Shown here one piece after another: positions 10,327-26,524 of a stretch of 44,816 nucleotides of DNA. The notes under the pieces were generated by a model. That model was given only the letters and a program-made list of their open reading frames with translations, made no database searches and was not told the origin of the DNA. Each line of letters begins with the position of its first letter. Position 1 is the first letter of the stretch. The position numbers and the translations under genes are program-made. Source of the DNA: Veterinaerplatzvirus T145P1; sequence record OZ035767.1, one strand, 5' to 3'.

Positions 10327-13308
10327 ATGGCAACAAATGAATTAGCCGGAATCACACTAGCCGTAGATGTCTCGCAAGTAGACAGGGGAACGCAATCCCT
10401 GCAAAAGTTCAGACAGGCAAACCAGCAAGCCGCTTCCGGTATTAGTGAATTCGTCAACGCTGAGCAGGTTGCTAAAAACCAGGCGAGAGATACGGCTCGT
10501 GCACTTTCTGAGCAGCAAGCGTCACTAGCTAAATTGCAAACAGCTATCGACCCAACTGCTGCAAAGTTCCGCAAGCTGCAAGAGGCAGCGGTGGGTCTTG
10601 ATAAAGCATTCGCTGCTGGCGTAGTTCCTGACGAGGAATTTTTCCGCTTAGGTGAGGCGCTAGAAACTCAAAACGCAAAACTTGCTCGTTCACGTGCGGC
10701 GCTAACTGAAGAGGGTAGGGCGGCAGCGCAGGCTGCAAAGGATAAGGCAAAAGCAAAGGCTGAAGCGGATAGATTCATTGCATCACTTGAGCGTCAGGCT
10801 CAAGCGGCAACATTGACGCGTGAGGAGTACTTAAAGTTACAAGCGGCCCAGCTTGGCGTTAGTTCTCAGGCAGCACCCATCATTGACAGAATCGCCGACG
10901 CATCACAGAAGGCAAACACCCAGTTAATTGCTCAGAGTAAGGCTTTTCAGAAATCAGGATTAAGCGCCGGGCAATACAAGAATGCCATATCTCAACTACC
11001 AGCGCAGATTACTGATATTGGCACGTCGCTTGCTGGTGGCATTCCGATTTGGCTTATTGCAATTCAGCAAGGTGGGCAGATCAAGGATGCATTTGGCGGC
11101 ATTGGTAACACCTTTAGATTCGCACTTGCAGCCTTAAACCCATTCAATGTAGCTGTTGGTGTTTTGGGTGGGGTACTTGTAGCTCTTGGTGTTGGTGCGG
11201 CTCAGGCTGAAAGTGAATTCAGAGCATTAAACTCTGCCATTGCATTTTCCAACAACTCTACAATCGCATCAATCTCGCAGGTTAGAGAGTTGGTTAGCTC
11301 TGTTTCTGATGCAACAGGTGCCACCAGAGGGCTTGTGACTAGCATCGCAACAAGCCTTATTGAGCAAGGGAACCTTACGCTGACGCAGATTGACAAGATT
11401 ACTAAATCGACCGCAAGATGGGCGCAGTTGACAGGCAAGGATGCGAAGGAAATTACTGGTTACTATAACCAGATTGCGAGCGACCCAATACAGGGATTGG
11501 TTGATTTGGATAAGCGCTTTAACTTCCTCACTCAGGGGCAGTTGACGACAATCGAAAACCTGAGAAAGACAAAGGGAGAGGTCGAGGCCGTTACCGCCGC
11601 AATTGACATTTTCAGCAAGTCGCAGGAAGCAAACCTTAACGACATAGCAGCGCAGTTAACTCCACTTGAGTTAGCCTGGAATGACTTTAGAAAGTACATC
11701 TCTGACATTTGGGATGCAATTAGCCGCAGAACGGTTGGGGCGCTAAACCTGTTTGTTGACGTAATTGCCGGAACAATTGAGCAGATCAGGGTCTTCATTA
11801 ACCAGGGTGACGTACTGATTGGTGAATTCGTAATTAGCGCAACGCAAGCGCTGCAAAACATTCCTGGTCTTGATGGTGTTGGTGATGATGTCATAAAGAG
11901 CCAGCAGAAGATTATCGATGCAGCCAAGAAGCAAAACCTTGAGCTAGAAAAGTCTATCAAGGAGCGCGATGCCAGAATAAGAGAAGGAGAACTTGGTTAC
12001 GTTACTCGCAGAGAAAATCAGAATACCAATGAGCAGTCAGGCACGGATGAGGAGTTTGCAAAAAGGAAGAAGGCGCTTCAGGATGAACTTGATGCGATCA
12101 AGAAGAACAGGAAAGAAGAAAATGGCAGGGTTAAAGAGCAAAGAGACCTTACAATTGGTTACGAATCTGGCGTACTGGCACTTCAGGCTCAACTCAAGGT
12201 TCTTCAGGAAAATAGGGATATTGGCGCAGTAATAAGTAATGAGCGCAAGCAGTATCTTCAGGATGAAGCCAAATTCAGGATTCTTGAGCAGAGGCAGCTT
12301 GATGGTTCAATCACCAAAGAGCAGTCAAGACTTCTTCTTGAGAAGGATAAAGTCCTCGAATTGGCAAGGCAGAAGGCTGAACTTGGAGATCAGATTGTTT
12401 TGCAGGAGCGAGCCAATAAGTTAGCTGAAGATAACCGCAAGAAGATTCTTCAGATTAACAACGAAGCAAAAAACATTGATTTGGGGGCTGGTCTATCTTC
12501 TCGTGAACAACAGAGAGCCAAAGAGATTCAGGCTCTTCAGTCCAATCAGGTTAATGCTGGTGGCGCAATTGATGACGTGGATTTTCAGCAGCTTCTCGAG
12601 GCAAGACGTAACTTTTATGCTCAGGAAGATGCGCTACGTGAAAACTGGCTTGCTGGTGTGAACCAATCCTTTGCTAATTGGGCTGAGAGCGCGAAGGATG
12701 CATTCTCAATTGCTGGAAGTTTAACCACCACAGTATTTGAAGGCATTACTGACCAGATTACTGACCTTGTAACAACTGGTGAAACTAACTTCAGAGAGTT
12801 CACTGTTAACATCCTTAAACAGATTGCTAAGATTGCGGCTCAGCTTCTTATTGTTAAGGCTATCGAGTCTAGTTTAAGTAGCTTTGGTGGTACTGGTGGC
12901 GCGATTGGCTCTATCGCATCTGCGATTGGTGGTGGATTCGCTAACGGTGGTTATACTGGTAATGGAGGGAAATACCAACCAGCAGGAACCGTACACCGTG
13001 GTGAGTTTGTATTCACAAAAGAAGCAACTAGTCGAATCGGTGTTAAGAACCTTTACGCTCTAATGAAAGGTTACGCAAACGGTGGTGTCGTTGGTGGTCC
13101 CTCTGGCTATGCAAATGGTGGCTTGGTTTCTGGAGGCACAGATGTTAATGTTAGTGGAATTACGGTTAACGTTAATAGTGGAATTGGAAGTGACCCAGAG
13201 CAGGCCAAGGCGCTGCAAAATGGCGTTAAGGCAATTGTAGCTGAAGAGATTTCTCAGTCTTTCCAGCAGGGTGGCAGAGCTTATCAGTACCTGCGCGGAT
13301 TTAACTAA
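10327..13308 (+). CDS. tail tape measure protein
   Basis: 993 aa, long alpha-helical/coiled-coil regions, Gly-rich C-terminus, canonical position. Confidence 0.9.
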   Translation: MATNELAGITLAVDVSQVDRGTQSLQKFRQANQQAASGISEFVNAEQVAKNQARDTARALSEQQASLAKLQTAIDPTAAKFRKLQEAAVGLDKAFAAGVVPDEEFFRLGEALETQNAKLARSRAALTEEGRAAAQAAKDKAKAKAEADRFIASLERQAQAATLTREEYLKLQAAQLGVSSQAAPIIDRIADASQKANTQLIAQSKAFQKSGLSAGQYKNAISQLPAQITDIGTSLAGGIPIWLIAIQQGGQIKDAFGGIGNTFRFALAALNPFNVAVGVLGGVLVALGVGAAQAESEFRALNSAIAFSNNSTIASISQVRELVSSVSDATGATRGLVTSIATSLIEQGNLTLTQIDKITKSTARWAQLTGKDAKEITGYYNQIASDPIQGLVDLDKRFNFLTQGQLTTIENLRKTKGEVEAVTAAIDIFSKSQEANLNDIAAQLTPLELAWNDFRKYISDIWDAISRRTVGALNLFVDVIAGTIEQIRVFINQGDVLIGEFVISATQALQNIPGLDGVGDDVIKSQQKIIDAAKKQNLELEKSIKERDARIREGELGYVTRRENQNTNEQSGTDEEFAKRKKALQDELDAIKKNRKEENGRVKEQRDLTIGYESGVLALQAQLKVLQENRDIGAVISNERKQYLQDEAKFRILEQRQLDGSITKEQSRLLLEKDKVLELARQKAELGDQIVLQERANKLAEDNRKKILQINNEAKNIDLGAGLSSREQQRAKEIQALQSNQVNAGGAIDDVDFQQLLEARRNFYAQEDALRENWLAGVNQSFANWAESAKDAFSIAGSLTTTVFEGITDQITDLVTTGETNFREFTVNILKQIAKIAAQLLIVKAIESSLSSFGGTGGAIGSIASAIGGGFANGGYTGNGGKYQPAGTVHRGEFVFTKEATSRIGVKNLYALMKGYANGGVVGGPSGYANGGLVSGGTDVNVSGITVNVNSGIGSDPEQAKALQNGVKAIVAEEISQSFQQGGRAYQYLRGFN

Positions 13309-15836: not shown

Positions 15837-15884
15837 TAGTGTAGAATGGCACAAATGATCAAAACAAACATGAGGCTTTGTGAT

Positions 15885-18800
15885 ATGGCTGAAGATATTA
15901 AGATTTATGGTGCTAAGGGTGGTAGCCAGAAGCAGCACCAACCAGTGGAACAAGAAGACAACCTGATTTCATTAAACAAGGTCAAGGTATTACTTGCGGT
16001 TGCTGACGGCGAGGTTGACCCTAACTTCTCAATGAAAGATTTATACCTTGCTGACGTTCCGGTGCAAAACCAGGATGGTAGCTACAACTATGATGGTGTT
16101 CGCGCTGAGTTCCGTGCTGGCACGCAGTATCAGGACTATATCGCCGGGCTTGACGGTGCTAACTCAGAGATTCAGGCATCCAGAGAAATCAAGAACGATA
16201 CCCCGTACATCATTGCGGTTAACAATACTCAGCTTTCAGCAATTCGAGTTAAGCTATTTTGGCCTCGACTGGTTAAGCAAGAAAACAACGGAGACCTGAA
16301 CGGAACAACTTGCGAGTACGCAATTGACCTTTCTGTTAATGGTGGTGCTTACCAGGAATACACTCGCGGAGTTGCTAACGGCAAGACAACTACAGGTTAC
16401 GACCGAAGCATTCGCGTAAACCTTCCGGCAGAGTTTGATAGTGCGCTTGTTCGCATCCGTAAGATTACAGCTGACTCAACGAGCAGCACACTGGTTAACG
16501 GAATGCAGATTACAACCTATCAGGAAGTAATCGACGCCAAATTCCGCTACCCGCTTACGGCTCTGGTCTATGTTGAGTTTGGTTCTGACTTGTTCCCTAA
16601 CGGCATCCCGACAATCTCAATAAAGAAGCGTTGGAAGCTAATTCAGGTACCGACAAACTACGACCCGGAGACAAGGACTTACAGCGGGACATGGAATGGC
16701 TTATTCAAGATGGCATGGTCGAATAACCCGGCATGGGTTCTCTATGACCTGGTGACAAACCGACGCTATGGGCTTGACCAGCGAGAGTTGGGTGTAGAGA
16801 TTGATAAATGGGGCTTGTATGAAGCCGCGCAATTCTGTGACCAGATGGTTCCAGATGGTAAGGGTGGTTTAGAGCCGCGTTACCTTTGCGATATGGTTGT
16901 GCAAAACAAGGTTGAGGCCTACACGCTAATTCGTGATATCTGCTCAATCTTCCGTGGTCTGACTTTCTATGACGGCGAAAAGATTGGCATCGTGGTTGAT
17001 AAGCCTCGCAACCCATCTTACATATTCACCAACGATAACGTTGTAAATGGATTGTTCAGCCGAACCTTTGCCAGTGATAAAAGCCTTTACACCACCGCAA
17101 ACGTTCAGTTTGATGATGTAGAAAACAACTACCAGCAGGATGTTGAGCCGGTATTTGAACTGGAAGCTACTCGCCGATTCGGATTCAATCCTGTCGACCT
17201 CACGGCAATTGGATGCACGAGAAGAAGTGAAGCAAACAGACGCGGCAGATGGCTCCTAAAAACCAACCTGAGAAGCGAAACCATAAGCTTCACTACCGGG
17301 CTGGAAGGCATGATTCCGATGATTGGTGAGGTGATTGCGGTCAATGACGCGGCATGGTCAAGCAACTATCAGTTAAACCTTTCTGGTCGCATTGAATCAG
17401 TTCAGGGATTGCAAGTTTTCACCCCGTTTAAAGTTGACGCAGCGCCGGGTGACAGAATTCTTCTGAACAAGCCTGACGGAAGTCCAGAAGCAAGAACTAT
17501 TGCCAGCGTTTCGGAAGATGGTAGGACAATCAACCTTAACACTGCTTTTAGCTTTGTTGCTCAGCCAGACACGGTATTTGCAATCGACAAGGATAACCTT
17601 GCTCTTCAGCAGTACGTTGTGACCGGGATTCAAAAGGCAGATACTGACGGCTCGGATTCATTCCAGTATACGATTACCGCTGTAGAGTATGACCCGAACA
17701 AGTATGACGAGATTGACTACGGCGTTAACATCGTTGACCGCCCAACTTCAATTGTTGAGCCTGACAGATTGTCGCCACCAGAAAACCTGACCGTGTCAAG
17801 TTATAGTAAGGTTGTTCAGGGCTTGTCGGTTGAGACGATGGTTATCGGATGGGATAAAGCGCCATACGCCAAAACATACAATGTTCAGTGGAGGAAAGAA
17901 AATGGTAACTGGATTAACGTACCAAGAACAGCAAGTACAGAGGTTGATATCGAAGGTATTTACGCGGGAATCTATGATGTTAGGGTTCGCAGCGTATCAG
18001 ATACTGAAAACGTGTCTGCATGGTCTGACATTGTAACGGTATCGCTAACTGGCAAGATTGGTCGTCCATCGGCACCTACGGTTATAACGGCATCAACTGA
18101 TGAAGTATTTGGTATCCGTGTTAAGTGGGGTTTCCCTGATGGCTCTGGCGATACTGCTTATACTGAACTTCAGCAGGTTGCTGATAATGGTGATGGTACA
18201 TACAATCCTGATAACGCAAGTTTGCTTACGTTACTTCCGTACCCAGCCTATGAATACTGGCACACGCCAATTCAGCCAGGCAAGGTTATCTGGTATCGCG
18301 CAAGATTGATTGACAGAATCGGAAATACGTCTGATTGGTCTAATTTCGCAAGAGGCATGAGTACTGACGACGCCAACATTATCAATGATTACATCAAGGT
18401 TGATATTGAGGGTTCTGAAGGATTCAAATACCTCGAGCAGAATGCGATTCAAAAGAATCAGGACATTCAGAATCAGGCAGAGTCAATTCTTGAGAACGCA
18501 TTGGCTAATGATGGTGATGTTCGTCGCATGACCAAGGAGAACGGCAAACGTAAGGCTGAATATGTTCAGGCGGTGAATCTCATAGCCGATGAAACTCAGG
18601 CACGCGTAGAGGCTCTTACGCAGCTTAAAGCGCAGATTGATGATGAGGTTGTTGGTCAGATTGCAACAATTGAAACAGCGCTAGCCACAGAGACAGAGGC
18701 AAGAGCGACAGCCGACACGGCTTTGAGCGCAAGGGTTGGTAATAACGAGGCGGCTCTAAACCAGAAGCTGGATGCTTTCTCTAATGCCACGTCAACTGGT

Positions 18801-19271
18801 GTACAGTACGGAATTAGTCTTGGCCTGAAATACAATGGACAGACTTATTCATCAGGCATGAGTATGGAACTTGTTGGTACTGGTGGGAATGTTCGCAGTC
18901 AGTTCATCTTTGACGCAAACAGATTCGCAATCAGTAACGGCATTGGTTCTGGTTCCGGTCAGTGGCAGCTCCCCTTCGTTGTCGAGAACGGAAACGTAAT
19001 CATCCAAAGCGCAGTAATCGGCGACGGATCAATTACTAACGCGAAGATTGGTAATATAATTTCATCAAATGATTATGTGGCAGGCTCTCAGGGGTGGGCG
19101 ATACTGAAAAGTGGTGCGTCAGAGTTCAATAACACAACTGTAAGGGGCAATCTTTACGCTAACAATGGTAACTTTGCTTTTAACGGAACCAATAACACGG
19201 TTCAGATTAACAATAACGGAATCACTGTAAACTTACCGAACGGAGGAAGAGTGGTAGTTGGAGTGTGGTAA
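15885..19271 (+). CDS. central tail fibre / host specificity protein (lambda J-like)
   Basis: About 1130 aa; N-terminus aligns by eye with lambda J; start chosen at ATG 15885 (RBS GAGG), could be 15846. Confidence 0.85.
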   Translation: MAEDIKIYGAKGGSQKQHQPVEQEDNLISLNKVKVLLAVADGEVDPNFSMKDLYLADVPVQNQDGSYNYDGVRAEFRAGTQYQDYIAGLDGANSEIQASREIKNDTPYIIAVNNTQLSAIRVKLFWPRLVKQENNGDLNGTTCEYAIDLSVNGGAYQEYTRGVANGKTTTGYDRSIRVNLPAEFDSALVRIRKITADSTSSTLVNGMQITTYQEVIDAKFRYPLTALVYVEFGSDLFPNGIPTISIKKRWKLIQVPTNYDPETRTYSGTWNGLFKMAWSNNPAWVLYDLVTNRRYGLDQRELGVEIDKWGLYEAAQFCDQMVPDGKGGLEPRYLCDMVVQNKVEAYTLIRDICSIFRGLTFYDGEKIGIVVDKPRNPSYIFTNDNVVNGLFSRTFASDKSLYTTANVQFDDVENNYQQDVEPVFELEATRRFGFNPVDLTAIGCTRRSEANRRGRWLLKTNLRSETISFTTGLEGMIPMIGEVIAVNDAAWSSNYQLNLSGRIESVQGLQVFTPFKVDAAPGDRILLNKPDGSPEARTIASVSEDGRTINLNTAFSFVAQPDTVFAIDKDNLALQQYVVTGIQKADTDGSDSFQYTITAVEYDPNKYDEIDYGVNIVDRPTSIVEPDRLSPPENLTVSSYSKVVQGLSVETMVIGWDKAPYAKTYNVQWRKENGNWINVPRTASTEVDIEGIYAGIYDVRVRSVSDTENVSAWSDIVTVSLTGKIGRPSAPTVITASTDEVFGIRVKWGFPDGSGDTAYTELQQVADNGDGTYNPDNASLLTLLPYPAYEYWHTPIQPGKVIWYRARLIDRIGNTSDWSNFARGMSTDDANIINDYIKVDIEGSEGFKYLEQNAIQKNQDIQNQAESILENALANDGDVRRMTKENGKRKAEYVQAVNLIADETQARVEALTQLKAQIDDEVVGQIATIETALATETEARATADTALSARVGNNEAALNQKLDAFSNATSTGVQYGISLGLKYNGQTYSSGMSMELVGTGGNVRSQFIFDANRFAISNGIGSGSGQWQLPFVVENGNVIIQSAVIGDGSITNAKIGNIISSNDYVAGSQGWAILKSGASEFNNTTVRGNLYANNGNFAFNGTNNTVQINNNGITVNLPNGGRVVVGVW

Positions 19272-19276
19272 TAAAT

Positions 19277-19305
19277 AAAGCCCCTTAATTGGGGCTTTTC
19301 TTTTA
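19277..19305. terminator. bidirectional terminator between convergent J and minus-strand tail genes
   Basis: AAAGCCCC-TTAATT-GGGGCTTT flanked by A/T runs on both sides. Confidence 0.7.
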
Positions 19306-20274
19306 GTAGAAGTTTGGGATAAATGGAAGTGCCATTGATATGTTCGTGTCGAAAGGAAACTGAGCGCCTGTCTGAGTTGAGTAGTTACCTATTACAGATC
19401 CAGGAACAGCCCTAACGGAGCCTCCAGACATGCAAACACCCTTGTATCGTAAGTTGTTATACCCTCCGGTAACTCTAGTCGTAGCGCCGCACCTAAGCAG
19501 CGGGAAGAAACCACCATTTATTGACTGATATCCATTGCTTATTTGTATAAATCCACCAAGAACGAATGGGCGGCGAACACTTGAAAAAACAATCTGACCA
19601 GAACTATTTGACATTGTGAGTCCAGGCCCGGCCGGTGGTGGTTCATTCCTGAATATCACCAGCTGAACATGGGTACTTGCCGCAACATCATCTGTACCTC
19701 CGTAGGTTATATCCCTACACCATATTGTTGATCCATCTGATTCAAGTGATACGTTTGGATTATCCCACTTGCCGAATGGTATTCCGCTAACTGGTAGCGA
19801 TGCTGCACCGTTAACCTGTATGCCCCCAACCCAGGCCGCAGACATTAGCCGCGAGTTGCTTGATATAGCAAGGAAATCAGTTGAGTTCTCAACAAGTATT
19901 CCAGGACTTGATGAGGATGAAGCCGGTAGTATCTCAAAGCAATTACCAGCAAAGTCAATTATTCGACCATTAGCACCATTGAAGTTGCTGAGAGTTATCC
20001 TGCCAGTTCCGTCATTTACCTTTTGAAACCCGTTCATGTAATAAACTTCGGGTATAACATCGTAAGCGTCAACGTGGACTGCCTTCGTTGGTAGGCAGAA
20101 AGCCGTAGAGCCAGGAGACATTGTCAATCCAAAATCCCACGAGATTGCCGGGGTTGAAAGTCCATTGGTATTTATTGATCCAGTCACAGCAGGTGCCCTT
20201 AATCCTGCCGTGATTTCCATCGCTGGTCTTCCGTCATTGAGGTCAATCAATATACCCTGCGGCATTATTTCCAC
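19303..20274 (-). CDS. tail-associated protein, candidate receptor-binding protein
   Basis: 323 aa Gly/Ser/Asn-rich, convergent to J, co-transcribed with a small lipoprotein; function inferred from context. Confidence 0.45.
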
Positions 20275-21452: not shown

Positions 21453-22414
21453 CTTTCAGGGTTTACACACGAGAGGAGCTAAGCAACGAGGATTACCACT
21501 CAGAGCAAGATCACATCTCAGGTAGTTCACTTGTCGAGATTATCCAGGGCTCACCAGCTAAGTGGAAATTTAAACAGCGCAACAATGATAGCAAGGCTCT
21601 TAAGTTTGGAACGCTGAGTCACACGTACATCCTAGAAGGTGACATGTTTGACAAAGAATACCTTCGAGCTACAGACCTTGACGCGATTGAAGGCTTAATT
21701 ACAAGCCAGGCAGGATTAGCAGCAGCACTTAAAAAAGTCGGTGTGGCTGGAACATCAGGGAAGGGCTATAGCGAGCTTGTAGAGATGATGTATCGTTCTG
21801 GCGAGGACTGGCCCATTAAGTGGCTAATTGATCAGCTGGAAAGCGCTCAAGCGCTTGTGGAGGGTAAGGAGCTAGTTAGCGCAGCAGACTATGACAAAGT
21901 TGTGGCTATGCGTGAGGTTCTTTGCAATATTCCGGCATACAATGCAATCGTGAATAGTGAGACGGCGCAGAAAGAGTTATCAATCTTCGGTGAGATTCTC
22001 GGCGTCGGCGTTAAGATTCGAATTGACCATGTTGATGTTGTTGATGGCGTTGTTCGGATCACGGATTATAAAACGACAGCCGACGCAAGCCCTGAAGGAT
22101 TTGGTAAGTCTGCATTTAATCACGGATACCTTGCAAAAATGGCGCTTCAGCGCGATCTGTTTGTGAAAGCATTTAACGAGAAGCGCAAGGTTGTTGTAGG
22201 ATTGCTGGCGCAGGAGAAGGTGGAGCCATACCTACCAATGCTGTACACACTAACCGACGAACAGCTACGAATTGGTCGCCTTCAGTATCTTGAGGCACTT
22301 GCAACTTACAAGAAGTGCAAGGAGCTTGATATTTGGCCTGGATATTCTAACGGCATTACAGAGCAAGAGCTATTGGTTCCTGATTGGGCCATTAAACAAT
22401 ATAGAGAGATATAA
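21449..22414 (+). CDS. putative PD-(D/E)XK-family recombination exonuclease
   Basis: 321 aa with D...DYK motif (ITDYKTT); sits next to ERF and SSB genes. Confidence 0.5.
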   Translation: MTFRVYTREELSNEDYHSEQDHISGSSLVEIIQGSPAKWKFKQRNNDSKALKFGTLSHTYILEGDMFDKEYLRATDLDAIEGLITSQAGLAAALKKVGVAGTSGKGYSELVEMMYRSGEDWPIKWLIDQLESAQALVEGKELVSAADYDKVVAMREVLCNIPAYNAIVNSETAQKELSIFGEILGVGVKIRIDHVDVVDGVVRITDYKTTADASPEGFGKSAFNHGYLAKMALQRDLFVKAFNEKRKVVVGLLAQEKVEPYLPMLYTLTDEQLRIGRLQYLEALATYKKCKELDIWPGYSNGITEQELLVPDWAIKQYREI

Positions 22415-22415
22415 A

Positions 22416-22880
22416 ATGAACAAAGATTGCTGGCAGACTCCTTTAGACTTATTCAAACCGATAGATGATAAATACAAATTCAAGGTTGACGTGTGCGCAA
22501 GCCAAGAAAACGCGCTTTGTAAATATTACTGGACTGTAGATGATGACTGCTTGCAACAGGATTGGGGAGATGATGGTGGTTTCGTTTGGTGCAATCCACC
22601 ATATAGCAATCCATTACCATTTGTTGAAAAGTGCCAGCAATACGGCTATGCGGTCATGCTATTGAATCAGGATACGTCAACAAAATGGGCTAAGATAGTC
22701 TTTGAAAAAGCATCAAAGGTTATACTTTTATCAGACAGGGTTAGGTTTATAAATCCAGTAACAATGGAGGTTGGTAAGTCAAATCCTAAATGCCAGATGA
22801 TTGTAGTTTTCGACAGGCGTAGCAATTCTGGAGTTGATATACGTTGGTGTTCAATAAAAGAAATTCATAAGCAAATTTAA
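22416..22880 (+). CDS. dam: DNA N6-adenine methyltransferase (phage Dam-type)
   Basis: Start ATG 22416 with RBS; NPPY catalytic motif (WCNPPYSN); small phage Dam architecture. Confidence 0.8.
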   Translation: MNKDCWQTPLDLFKPIDDKYKFKVDVCASQENALCKYYWTVDDDCLQQDWGDDGGFVWCNPPYSNPLPFVEKCQQYGYAVMLLNQDTSTKWAKIVFEKASKVILLSDRVRFINPVTMEVGKSNPKCQMIVVFDRRSNSGVDIRWCSIKEIHKQI

Positions 22881-23646: not shown

Positions 23647-24072
23647 ATGCACGTAATTACTGGTCAGATTCGACGCGCTCCATTCACTAAAGAAGGTCAT
23701 AATGCTAATGGTACCTGGAAAATGTTTGCGGTTGATTTGAGTGAGCGATACAAAGATAAAGATGGTCAGACTCAGTATAGTAACTATCGCGCAGTCTTCT
23801 TCGCGAAAGAGTCAATGTTAGATTGGTATAATGAAGCTTTTCAAGAGGGTAAAGTTGTTAGCGTTAGCGCAGAGACTCTTTCTGTTGATGTTAGAGATAA
23901 AGATGGCAAGACTTACGTTACTGTCAACATGAACAATCCTAGACTTGAGTTTAGTCAGCGCGGTGAAGGTGGCGTGCAGCAGCAACCTAGACAACAGCAA
24001 CAAGCACAACAGCAACAACAGAATCAACAGCCAAAACAGCAAAAGCAATTCGAAGATGATATTCCTTTCTAA
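23647..24072 (+). CDS. ssb: single-stranded DNA-binding protein
   Basis: OB-fold-like N-terminus, Gln/Pro-rich linker, acidic C-terminal tail ending DDIPF. Confidence 0.85.
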   Translation: MHVITGQIRRAPFTKEGHNANGTWKMFAVDLSERYKDKDGQTQYSNYRAVFFAKESMLDWYNEAFQEGKVVSVSAETLSVDVRDKDGKTYVTVNMNNPRLEFSQRGEGGVQQQPRQQQQAQQQQQNQQPKQQKQFEDDIPF

Positions 24073-24076
24073 AGAT

Positions 24077-24101
24077 AAGGCCCCTTTTGGGGCCTTTTTT
24101 A
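24077..24101. terminator. bidirectional terminator between ssb and convergent tail fibre gene
   Basis: AAGGCCCC-TTTT-GGGGCCTT hairpin with flanking T-run. Confidence 0.7.
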
Positions 24102-26435
24102 TTAACCTATTTTAGTGTAAGTCCATTGGTATGTTGCAGCTCCCTGGGCAGTTATCCCGACAGTTCTTCCACTTACATCCATTGAAGTGAAAGCGCCAGT
24201 TTTTGTAATTGTTATTGATGATGTGGAACCATCAAAAAGTACGTCAGCAATTACACTATAGTTAGGTCCAGCACCAGTAACCCAGGTCGAAACCTTGTAT
24301 AAACCAGCGTTGTTTGGCAACTCAAAAAGACCAGTTGAAACATTCGCCTGAACAGCCATCGCGCCCTTTCCGGTGTACACACCGTCAGTTTTAAGACCTA
24401 ATGATGAATATGTTTGCTTATAGCCACCAATGATGGCACCACCCATAGGTTCAGTAAACCAGTTCACATTACCCTGACTAACAACAGATATCGCTGGAGA
24501 CCCCCCTTTAGCTGACTGAAACCTACCGCTTAAAATGTCAATTCTAGATGCTGAGTCCTGGGCGTAGATAGTTACAGGATACCCACCAGAACCAGTGTAA
24601 ACCAAGCCGTTATCATTAATGTCATCTTCAGACGAGTCAATGATTACATGGGAAGTTCCAGACGCCTTGATGAACGAAACAACACCGCTAGAACCAGCAC
24701 CTGTTGTTCTAACTTCATTCTTCCATGATGTTAGGCCTGAAATTCTGCCATTTGAGTTATTAAACCTAATCAGGCAACAATCTTGCGATCCGTTGGTGTC
24801 AATAATGTTACCTTCAACGTCCATCCCTAGTATGTTTACGCTATGGCTGTTGATGAAGTTAATCCCAGCACCACCGTAAGAACCAGATGTTGATGATATA
24901 TTACTGGCATCCATTGCGCAGTTAATCATTGTAACGCTCATTACCGAACCAAATTCATAAGGTGAAATGCAATCTGATGCGTAACAAGTCTCAAGCAATA
25001 TTGTCGTTCCTGTCGCCTTTATGAATCCAGCCCTGCAATTCCTGGCCCAAACATTCTGTAGCTTAGTCTGGTATGTTCCAGTGGTGTCCGTGTAGCAACC
25101 CCATGCTCCATGGACTGTGCAATCTTTGATACATGAATTTTCTAGCCCTGTTGCAGAACCAACATTAGAAACGAAGTTAAATGCTATCTTTTGATCATTC
25201 CCTGATGCTGAGGTAGGTGTAGTGCCTGGGTTATAAAAAATGTAAAGTCCCTCAATAAACACTTGATACATTCTTATGTTTTGCGCATCACCCTGAACCA
25301 GGGCGAATAGGTTTATGTTCCCATCAACTGAGATAAATGTTTGCGCCCTGTTAATTTGGTTTGTTCCCTCGCCAATAATTCTTGTACTGTTGCCAATCCT
25401 CACCGTCCTGTTAATGAACATAAAACCTTTTGGTATGTATACAGTTTTACCGGTATCAACTGCCGCCTGAAGCGCAACTGCGTCAAGCGACTCGTTAAGG
25501 TTTGATGCAAATGGATAAACAAACCGTGCATCCTCAATTGACGAGAATTTAGATGATAGCGGAACTAAAGTACCATTGTTTGTGGCGCCGAAATCCATAA
25601 CGTTAACAAAATCACTAAGTTTTGATTCCACGCTTCTAACCACTGATGATACATTATTCAGCTTGAAGTTTATCATTGATGAGCCATTATCATTCTCAAG
25701 ATTTTTGAGGACCCTTCCGTTTGAAAGAAGCCTCCAGCCAGTCTCATCATCTATACCCCCCGTTCCTTCTGGGGTTGATCCTTGCGGTACAACCTTAGGG
25801 AATGCTCCAGACCACACATAAACAGAAGAGTTCTCAATGTCTATGATTTGCTGAGAATCACCCTGAAGAGTAACGCCACCTTGAAAGCTACCAACTAAAG
25901 CTCCTGAAACTGATGCTGCCGCACTCTGAGCAGTGCTTGCAGAGTTGCTTGCAGACAATGCGGAACTAGAAGCAGAATCCTTGTCACTCGCAACCTGGGC
26001 GGCATCATTTGAAACCTGCGCACCAATTGAAATTACTTCACCATACTGCGTGTTAACCTGCGAAACCTTTGTGCTAAAGTCATTTGCATCAAAGTTTTTG
26101 AAAGCATCAACAGCATCTGAAACCTCAGTTTCACGTGACTGATAGTAACGGAGAGTCTCCGCAACATCCTGAGCCAGCCCCTGAACGGTAATTCCATCAT
26201 GCGCAAGGATAGCGTAACCAGTTCCAGCAGGAACAGTTTCGGAGTTAGGGTTGTAAACATTAATCTGCGTATCGCTGATAATTTCTGAGATGGTGTAAAT
26301 CTGTACTGGTTCAGTTTTAAATACAATGGTTGCACCTACACGAATCAGTGTAAGAGGTGCTTTCCATGTTGTCCCGACGCCAGTCACCTCACCACTTGCT
26401 GCTAGAGAAGCTGTTCCTGAGTCATAAATTGCCAT
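24102..26435 (-). CDS. tail fibre / tailspike with beta-helix-like C-terminal domain
   Basis: Start moved to ATG 26435 (MAIYD...); N-terminal fibre-anchor-like region, Ser/Ala-rich repeats, C-terminal Gly/Asn/Thr/Cys-rich region typical of parallel beta-helix. Confidence 0.7.
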   Translation of the reverse strand: MAIYDSGTASLAASGEVTGVGTTWKAPLTLIRVGATIVFKTEPVQIYTISEIISDTQINVYNPNSETVPAGTGYAILAHDGITVQGLAQDVAETLRYYQSRETEVSDAVDAFKNFDANDFSTKVSQVNTQYGEVISIGAQVSNDAAQVASDKDSASSSALSASNSASTAQSAAASVSGALVGSFQGGVTLQGDSQQIIDIENSSVYVWSGAFPKVVPQGSTPEGTGGIDDETGWRLLSNGRVLKNLENDNGSSMINFKLNNVSSVVRSVESKLSDFVNVMDFGATNNGTLVPLSSKFSSIEDARFVYPFASNLNESLDAVALQAAVDTGKTVYIPKGFMFINRTVRIGNSTRIIGEGTNQINRAQTFISVDGNINLFALVQGDAQNIRMYQVFIEGLYIFYNPGTTPTSASGNDQKIAFNFVSNVGSATGLENSCIKDCTVHGAWGCYTDTTGTYQTKLQNVWARNCRAGFIKATGTTILLETCYASDCISPYEFGSVMSVTMINCAMDASNISSTSGSYGGAGINFINSHSVNILGMDVEGNIIDTNGSQDCCLIRFNNSNGRISGLTSWKNEVRTTGAGSSGVVSFIKASGTSHVIIDSSEDDINDNGLVYTGSGGYPVTIYAQDSASRIDILSGRFQSAKGGSPAISVVSQGNVNWFTEPMGGAIIGGYKQTYSSLGLKTDGVYTGKGAMAVQANVSTGLFELPNNAGLYKVSTWVTGAGPNYSVIADVLFDGSTSSITITKTGAFTSMDVSGRTVGITAQGAATYQWTYTKIG

Positions 26436-26458
26436 TGTGTAGAGTCTCCATTTGTAAA

Positions 26459-26476
26459 ATAGCACGAATTGCTAAA
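26459..26476. promoter_or_regulatory. orphan copy of the palindrome (no canonical downstream -10 box)
   Basis: ATAGCACGAATTGCTAAA, 24 nt upstream of the minus-strand tail fibre start codon. Confidence 0.4.
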
Positions 26477-26499
26477 GTGGATTGTAGCATCTTTGAGTC

Positions 26500-26524
26500 A
26501 TAAAAAAACCTCCCGAAGGAGGTT
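26500..26524 (-). terminator. rho-independent terminator of primase transcript (minus strand)
   Basis: AACCTCC-CGAA-GGAGGTT hairpin followed by T-run on the minus strand. Confidence 0.7.

Follow-up and report, generated by a model that had tools for sequence, protein, structure and literature searches.

A reverse-strand gene in the window, the whole 44,816-nucleotide stretch analyzed here (OZ035767.1), very probably encodes the lateral (side) tailspike of an Rtp/T1-like E. coli siphovirus of the Drexlerviridae. The encoded 777-residue protein combines a conserved N-terminal region, an exchangeable middle cassette, a right-handed parallel β-helix and a C-terminal β-sandwich. Judged by its sequence, it appears to be a new recombinant allele, near-identical genes being already annotated in published phages. 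Lateral tailspikes with exchangeable β-helix domains are textbook for this family.

The first 25 kb of the window are 98.9% identical at the nucleotide level to three genomes named Veterinaerplatzvirus T145P1 and begin at their base 1; the window is thus an essentially complete genome of that genus (Drexlerviridae, Braunvirinae). Genes for a PDDEXK exonuclease, an ERF recombinase and ssb on the forward strand precede a reverse-strand group that encodes the spike, a primase with a zinc ribbon and a regulator resembling Cro; a forward-strand helicase gene comes next. The same order surrounds the SU57 gene annotated “tail spike protein”, and the position between ssb and primase is likewise that of rtp50 in phage Rtp and of the “lateral tail fiber” gene of JeanPiccard. 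In Rtp (rtp50) and many other relatives, a tail-fibre gene is annotated over the same conserved N-terminal region, and the locus is kept across hundreds of Drexlerviridae. The preliminary description had placed the spike on the strand opposite to a J-type central fibre, and this is correct: the J-type protein (15846–19271, forward) matches PF24801, PF13550 and PF09327, with a DUF6453 protein (19303–20274) encoded downstream of it. A second spike gene whose product could dock on the Tail_spike_N domain was also considered and rejected, since the remaining large ORFs of the window code for products of other kinds, among them a helicase, an exonuclease, an endolysin and minor tail proteins.

The reverse-strand reading frame is open without a break over 24102–26465, and the base composition of the window predicts only ~3e-16 chance ORFs of such length. 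Translation from the ATG at 26435 yields 777 aa, in exact agreement with the coordinates first assigned to the gene (24102–26435). We take this ATG as the true start because GGAG lies 10 nt upstream and all homologs begin with MAIY or MALY; the GTG at 26465, which lacks a ribosome-binding site, was rejected. Composition counts bear out a C-terminal part rich in Gly, Asn, Thr and Ser with spaced Cys, as had been noticed earlier: the last ~530 residues (aa 246–777) contain 11% Gly, 8% Asn, 9% Thr and 11% Ser, and all nine Cys residues of the protein fall within aa 435–554. Two motifs that had been quoted as short repeats are indeed present (aa 545 and aa 593), but their status as repeats was rejected, since each occurs singly even when five mismatches are allowed in a fuzzy search and self-BLAST found no internal repeat.

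An AlphaFold2 model of the spike monomer was computed from a 67-sequence alignment (mean pLDDT 81.6). It comprises a β-rich region (aa 2–78), a long α-helix (aa 86–175), a small β domain (aa 180–236), a run of strands (aa ~276–660) and a β-sandwich (aa 687–775). Confidence is mostly above 90 in pLDDT over the strand run and ~90 over the sandwich; it is lower over the helix, as expected for a coiled coil modelled as a monomer. The region behind the anchor had been described as Ser/Ala-rich and of low complexity. Its composition stands (17% Ser and 12% Ala over aa 111–245), but low-complexity disorder does not, given the modelled helix at aa 86–175, which probably forms a trimeric stalk. A Foldseek search of the PDB with the model returned phage tailspikes only as top matches, namely CBA120 TSP3 (E 1e-12), Sf6 (E 1.6e-10), TSP4, phi297, LKA1 and TSP1; TM-scores are low because inter-domain angles are arbitrary in a monomer model. 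Structure prediction had been named as the analysis that could refute a β-helix or pectate-lyase-like fold, and both AlphaFold and Foldseek instead returned that fold. Three of the Cys residues (C467, C484 and C506, 17–22 residues apart) are invariant across diverse homologs, and together with several invariant Asn residues they would fit the stacked ladders typical of a β-helix.

Sequence profiles place the same boundaries. Pfam detects Tail_spike_N (PF18668) at aa 179–230 (E 2e-12), while the pectate-lyase-like family PF12708 over aa 276–489 scores 14.7 bits (E 0.027), below its 27-bit gathering cut-off. We therefore did not assign the fold from Pfam alone; the subthreshold match is due to the divergence of the sequence, and the β-helix claim is carried by the structural evidence. 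Among PHROG families, those of tail fibres (phrog_24092 and others) account for aa 1–~250, and phrog_8649, listed as “unknown function”, accounts for aa 247–777 (E 4e-164). Searches of PDB sequences matched aa 1–172 with the Klebsiella “Depolymerase” entries 7vyv, 7vz3 and 7lzj (E ~4e-35), aa ~180–290 with CBA120 TSP3, and aa 277–365 with the Pseudomonas tailspikes LKA1 gp49 and phi297. The claim that the first ~100 residues are a conserved fibre anchor is well borne out: 978 phage records match the protein, mostly via aa 1–105 or 1–173, with breakpoints at aa ~105–173. By analogy with all solved relatives, the spike is most likely a homotrimer. The C-terminal β-sandwich is co-inherited with the β-helix in every carrier of the module and probably serves in trimer stabilization or glycan binding. 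Features of the locus are collected in Table 1.

Table 1 The tailspike gene, its putative signals and the parts of its product, in positions of the window.
Feature	Positions	Strand	Basis
GC-rich hairpin with T-runs on both strands	24077..24096	.	Scan; annotated in SU57 too
Lateral tailspike CDS, 777 aa + stop	24102..26435	-	ORF list; SU57_00050 homology
C-terminal β-sandwich, aa ~687–777	24105..24377	-	Modelled strands; co-inheritance with β-helix
Right-handed parallel β-helix, aa ~276–660, putative glycan-binding/cleaving domain	24456..25610	-	
Module B, aa 106–271: exchangeable cassette of Ser/Ala-rich helix (to ~175), Tail_spike_N (179–230) and linker	25623..26120	-	Nucleotide comparison; PF18668; model
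Module A, aa 1–105: virion anchor conserved across Drexlerviridae (strands aa 2–78) and start of helix	26121..26435	-	PDB, PHROG and T145P1 matches; model
GGAG ribosome-binding site	26446..26449	-	10 nt 5′ of ATG 26435; read from sequence
TGcTACAAT, possible extended -10	26481..26489	-	Between hairpin 26507..26524 and RBS; read from sequence
Terminator-like hairpin with T-run at primase gene end, directly upstream of spike gene	26507..26524	-	Scan; annotated in SU57 too

Comparison of the gene among relatives, which had been proposed as a check for mosaicism of the C-terminal domain, gave a clear-cut result. Against T145P1, the genome nearest to the window, nucleotides 1–315 are 96% identical and nucleotides 814 to the end are 99.3% identical; codons 106–271 in between have no DNA match in T145P1, which carries 747 nt in place of 498 nt. 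Against SU57, the first ~600 nt are 99–100% identical and the remainder 87–93%. From this pattern of identity, the allele in the window is recombinant, its 5′ third being of SU57 type and the remaining 3′ two-thirds of T145P1 type, with breakpoints at aa ~105 and ~272 relative to T145P1 and at aa ~200 relative to SU57. At greater distances, the module spanning aa ~245–777 recurs at 40–58% identity behind several unlike N-termini. In an E. coli prophage protein (51% identical) it follows a P22 head-binding domain (PF09008), a domain for which Pfam gave no match in the spike of the window, and the gene lies beside those for Arc, Mnt and an antirepressor. Elsewhere the module stands behind a T7-fibre N-terminus (P0097), behind a Calx-beta domain (P0060) and in E. 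coli proteins of 751 aa that bear the name “phage tail protein”. It is also preceded by a short N-terminus plus Tail_spike_N in proteins of 660–664 aa, one of which (P0030) is encoded directly after tail genes on a ~50 kb siphovirus contig. Such exchange of modules is typical of receptor-binding enzymes.

In the mechanism that we propose, aa 1–~80 would anchor the spike at the distal tail, the Ser/Ala-rich helix (aa 86–175) would form a coiled-coil stalk, and the Tail_spike_N domain (aa ~180–236) would connect it to the next part. The β-helix (aa ~276–660) would then bind a host surface polysaccharide, most likely a specific O-antigen, and probably cleave it, while the C-terminal sandwich (aa ~687–777) would stabilize the trimer or add glycan contacts. 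With the glycan processed, the virion would be able to move down through the layer of polysaccharide, after which the central J fibre and the DUF6453 protein could engage the terminal outer-membrane receptor. The suggestion in the preliminary description that the phage uses two receptor-recognition devices fits the gene content (J plus the DUF6453 protein, and the spike). It also fits the BASEL model, in which lateral fibres of Drexlerviridae bind O-antigen as a facultative primary receptor, a role that its authors state has “never been directly demonstrated” (PMC8594841).

Residues D281, D318, E432, D450, D509, E541, D604 and H442, along with further polar positions, do not vary among 19 homologs of 43–94% identity, and from their conservation E432, H442, D450, D509, E541 and D604 are candidate catalytic residues. 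Sequence homology to solved tailspikes is confined to the β-helix cap and falls short of any catalytic site, and PDB searches found the presumed catalytic region of the C-terminal module to have sequence in common with no solved structure. Transfer of the LKA1 gp49 lyase chemistry to the spike was rejected, as both the hhalign and the profile-versus-PDB alignments end at the cap. As the homology to LKA1 ends before His494, Asp497 and His499, the putative enzyme may be either a hydrolase or a lyase. More tentatively, the phrog_8649 module could represent an uncharacterized family of tailspike enzymes with an active site of its own, built from the invariant E432, H442, D450, D509 and E541. The four phages obtained from sewage on E. 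coli T145 would then share one host-determining β-helix on two interchangeable stalks, and, if this is true, the aa 106–271 cassette would be a naturally validated “plug” boundary for engineering of receptor-binding proteins.

Three other readings of the spike were weighed against an O-antigen-processing lateral tailspike. A fibre whose β-helix holds a surface glycan reversibly without cleaving it is quite improbable: the seven invariant acidic residues and H442 are kept in homologs down to 43% identity, and the closest tested relatives in architecture (Depo32, LKA1 gp49, the CBA120 TSPs and the Sf6 TSP) are enzymes throughout. The plaques of SU57, which have halos, also speak against binding only, but this evidence is unspecific, since the SU57 authors see halos as a general trait of T1-like phages (PMC7718038). 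Cleavage is also part of a reading in which the spike is an active depolymerase of capsule (K-antigen), colanic acid or another exopolysaccharide instead of O-antigen, which we hold to be unlikely. The same module occupies the gene-9 tailspike position of a P22-like E. coli prophage, and O-antigen is the classical target of P22-type spikes. The best Foldseek matches, CBA120 TSP3 and Sf6, are O-antigen endoglycosidases, and O-antigen is also the target in the model for E. coli Drexlerviridae (PMC8594841). Literature on SU57/ECOR57 and on the T145 phages reports no serotype or receptor. K-12 was the isolation host of JeanPiccard (PMC8594841), and MG1655 supports plating of the T145 phages (bioRxiv 10.1101/2024.11.07.622273). 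Counting against the O-antigen-processing reading, such relatives, with a β-helix 90–99% identical, plate on O-antigen-less K-12; the spike is therefore dispensable there, and its target is not deducible from those hosts.

That the gene has fallen silent or is decaying, unexpressed because it lies behind a rho-independent terminator, is extremely unlikely. The terminator-like hairpin (26524–26507) does stand directly upstream, a consensus scan of the 70-nt gap found no full σ70 promoter, and the SU57 paper calls transcription of the gene uncertain owing to the preceding terminator (PMC7718038). Against this, the ORF is intact over 777 codons, and dN/dS relative to SU57 is 0.075 at dS 0.29 (0.073 over aa 201–777), so that strong purifying selection acts on the spike and the gene is functional. 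Given this ratio, the transcription doubt of the SU57 authors is not supported here. A GGAG site and the TGcTACAAT element precede the gene, its locus is conserved across the family as described above, and the orthologous Depo32 is treated, in a schematic model, as a virion-borne depolymerase anchored via the same N-terminal domain (PMC10581125). TGcTACAAT has no accompanying -35, for which reason the consensus scan passed it over, and might, on weak inference from its sequence, be a promoter element of the spike gene; terminator read-through from the regulator–primase operon is the alternative route to expression. At its 3′ end, the hairpin at 24077–24096 is a bidirectional terminator common to the convergent ssb and spike genes.

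The range of smooth E. coli strains that the phage can approach is probably determined by the spike, which bears on host-range prediction and on phage and enzyme engineering. Useful boundaries for exchanging receptor-binding domains are given by the clean natural breakpoints at aa ~105, ~200 and ~272 and by the recurrence of a single β-helix module after no fewer than five types of N-terminus.

Among known systems, CBA120 TSP1 and TSP3 have the Tail_spike_N connection domain in common with the spike, and the C-terminal module of the spike is also found fused to the head-binding domain of P22-type tailspikes. Identity to the CBA120 TSPs and to spikes of the Sf6, P22 and HK620 type is nonetheless just 11–16% in structural alignments, and those proteins sit on podovirus tails or in a branched myovirus complex, in contrast to the lateral siphovirus position of the spike. 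LKA1 gp49 and phi297 gp61 (4ru4 and 4ru5) are O-antigen lyase tailspikes of Pseudomonas phages. LKA1 has a proposed His494/Asp497/His499 site, a β-barrel insertion domain and a discoidin-like C-terminal domain (PMC5701251). The hhalign alignment spans only LKA1 residues 142–323, leaving the insertion domain (283–370) incomplete, and stops at aa ~407 of the spike, short of the active site; no discoidin domain was detected by hhalign against LKA1, and a profile search against PDB sequences gave matches confined to ~100 residues at the start of the 4ru4 and 4ru5 chains.

Depo32 (GH-K3 gp32; 7vyv and 7vz3) and 7lzj are K2-capsule depolymerases from Klebsiella Drexlerviridae (KP36-like) phages, and Depo32 has been shown experimentally to be an active trimeric depolymerase (PMC10581125). 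It agrees with the spike in domain order and in the N-terminal anchor (E 4e-35). Past spike aa ~172, however, there is no detectable sequence similarity; Depo32 is 907 aa long with an extra CBM, its catalytic Glu423, Glu545 and Asp546 do not map onto the spike, and its substrate is Klebsiella K2 capsule. Nearer still are the lateral tail fibres (842–860 aa) of JeanPiccard (Bas02) and the T145P1-type phages, which belong to the same genus backbone (98.9% nucleotide identity over 25 kb for T145P1). They carry the same anchor (aa 1–105) and a β-helix plus C-terminal domain 90–99% identical to those of the spike, and differ in a middle cassette of 249 aa, as against 166 aa in the window, without a PF18668 match.

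The closest known proteins are all 777 aa long: SU57_00050 (phage vB_EcoD_SU57, MT511058), the RobRod40 protein (89% identical) and homologs on metagenomic contigs (P0001, 93%). SU57_00050 is 95.6% identical in amino acid sequence, with aa 1–200 identical, and has the same locus, flanking genes and terminators as the window. As a tail spike annotation thus already exists for a protein so similar, the current understanding is unchanged. The two alleles part in the β-helix portion, where SU57 is only 87–93% identical in nucleotides and the gene of the window instead follows the T145P1 allele at 99.3%.

Compared with three T145P1 genomes (OZ035765, OZ035786, and OZ035793) that are otherwise 99% identical, the lateral tailspike encoded in the window differs solely in its middle cassette, aa 106-271. 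In the T145P1 genomes this position is occupied by an alternative cassette of 249 aa, which returned no match to the connector domain Tail_spike_N (PF18668). Judged by sequence comparison, the stalk and connector are exchanged between these spikes while the anchor and β-helix are retained. The window also starts at a position coinciding with base 1 of the same three genomes, and the isolation host of its phage may be E. coli T145.

A terminator ahead of the spike gene puzzled the authors describing phage vB_EcoD_SU57 (PMC7718038). In the window, a hairpin lies at the primase stop, a TGcTACAAT extended -10-like element follows within about 20 nt, and a GGAG ribosome-binding site then precedes the spike gene. 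From their sequences, the -10-like element and ribosome-binding site offer a possible explanation for spike expression downstream of a terminator.

A β-helix module in common with the window spike is carried by a P22-like prophage tailspike on an E. coli contig. Directly 3′ of this tailspike are genes for a reverse transcriptase (RVT_1) and an SMC/AAA-type ATPase, and the pair, at the prophage end, looks like a retron-type defence cassette.

Coordinates of features in the window and in the E. coli prophage contig
Feature	Coordinates	Strand	Remarks
DUF6453 protein	19303-20274	-	PHROG 'membrane protein'; convergent with J
ORF with NPPY motif	22272-22880	+	overlaps exonuclease gene end
ssb (annotated)	23647-24072	+	
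Spike middle cassette	25623-26120		aa 106-271; stalk helix and Tail_spike_N domain
Terminator-like hairpin, then TGcTACAAT extended -10-like element	26481-26524	-	upstream of spike
RVT_1 and SMC/AAA-type ATPase genes	10737-13304		contig JAIQNZ010000041

Elsewhere in the window, the NPPY motif of one ORF suggests an N6-adenine DNA methyltransferase; the TTG listed as the start of this ORF probably lies upstream of the real start codon. The annotated ssb product gave no Pfam match at E 0.001; its tail is long and Gln-rich (QQQPRQQQQAQQQQQNQQPKQQKQ), with a canonical acidic DDIPF tip.

The DUF6453 protein encoded beside the J-type central fibre gene (J) has counterparts of 96-99% identity in SU57, 2725-N35, and T145P1, and is annotated as a 'receptor binding protein' in vB_ecoS_OzMSK. 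A small ORF lies just beyond its gene and is grouped with the same locus. The BASEL papers call this locus, with its adjoining ORF, the 'bona fide RBP' locus; in JeanPiccard it specifies LptD as the outer-membrane receptor.
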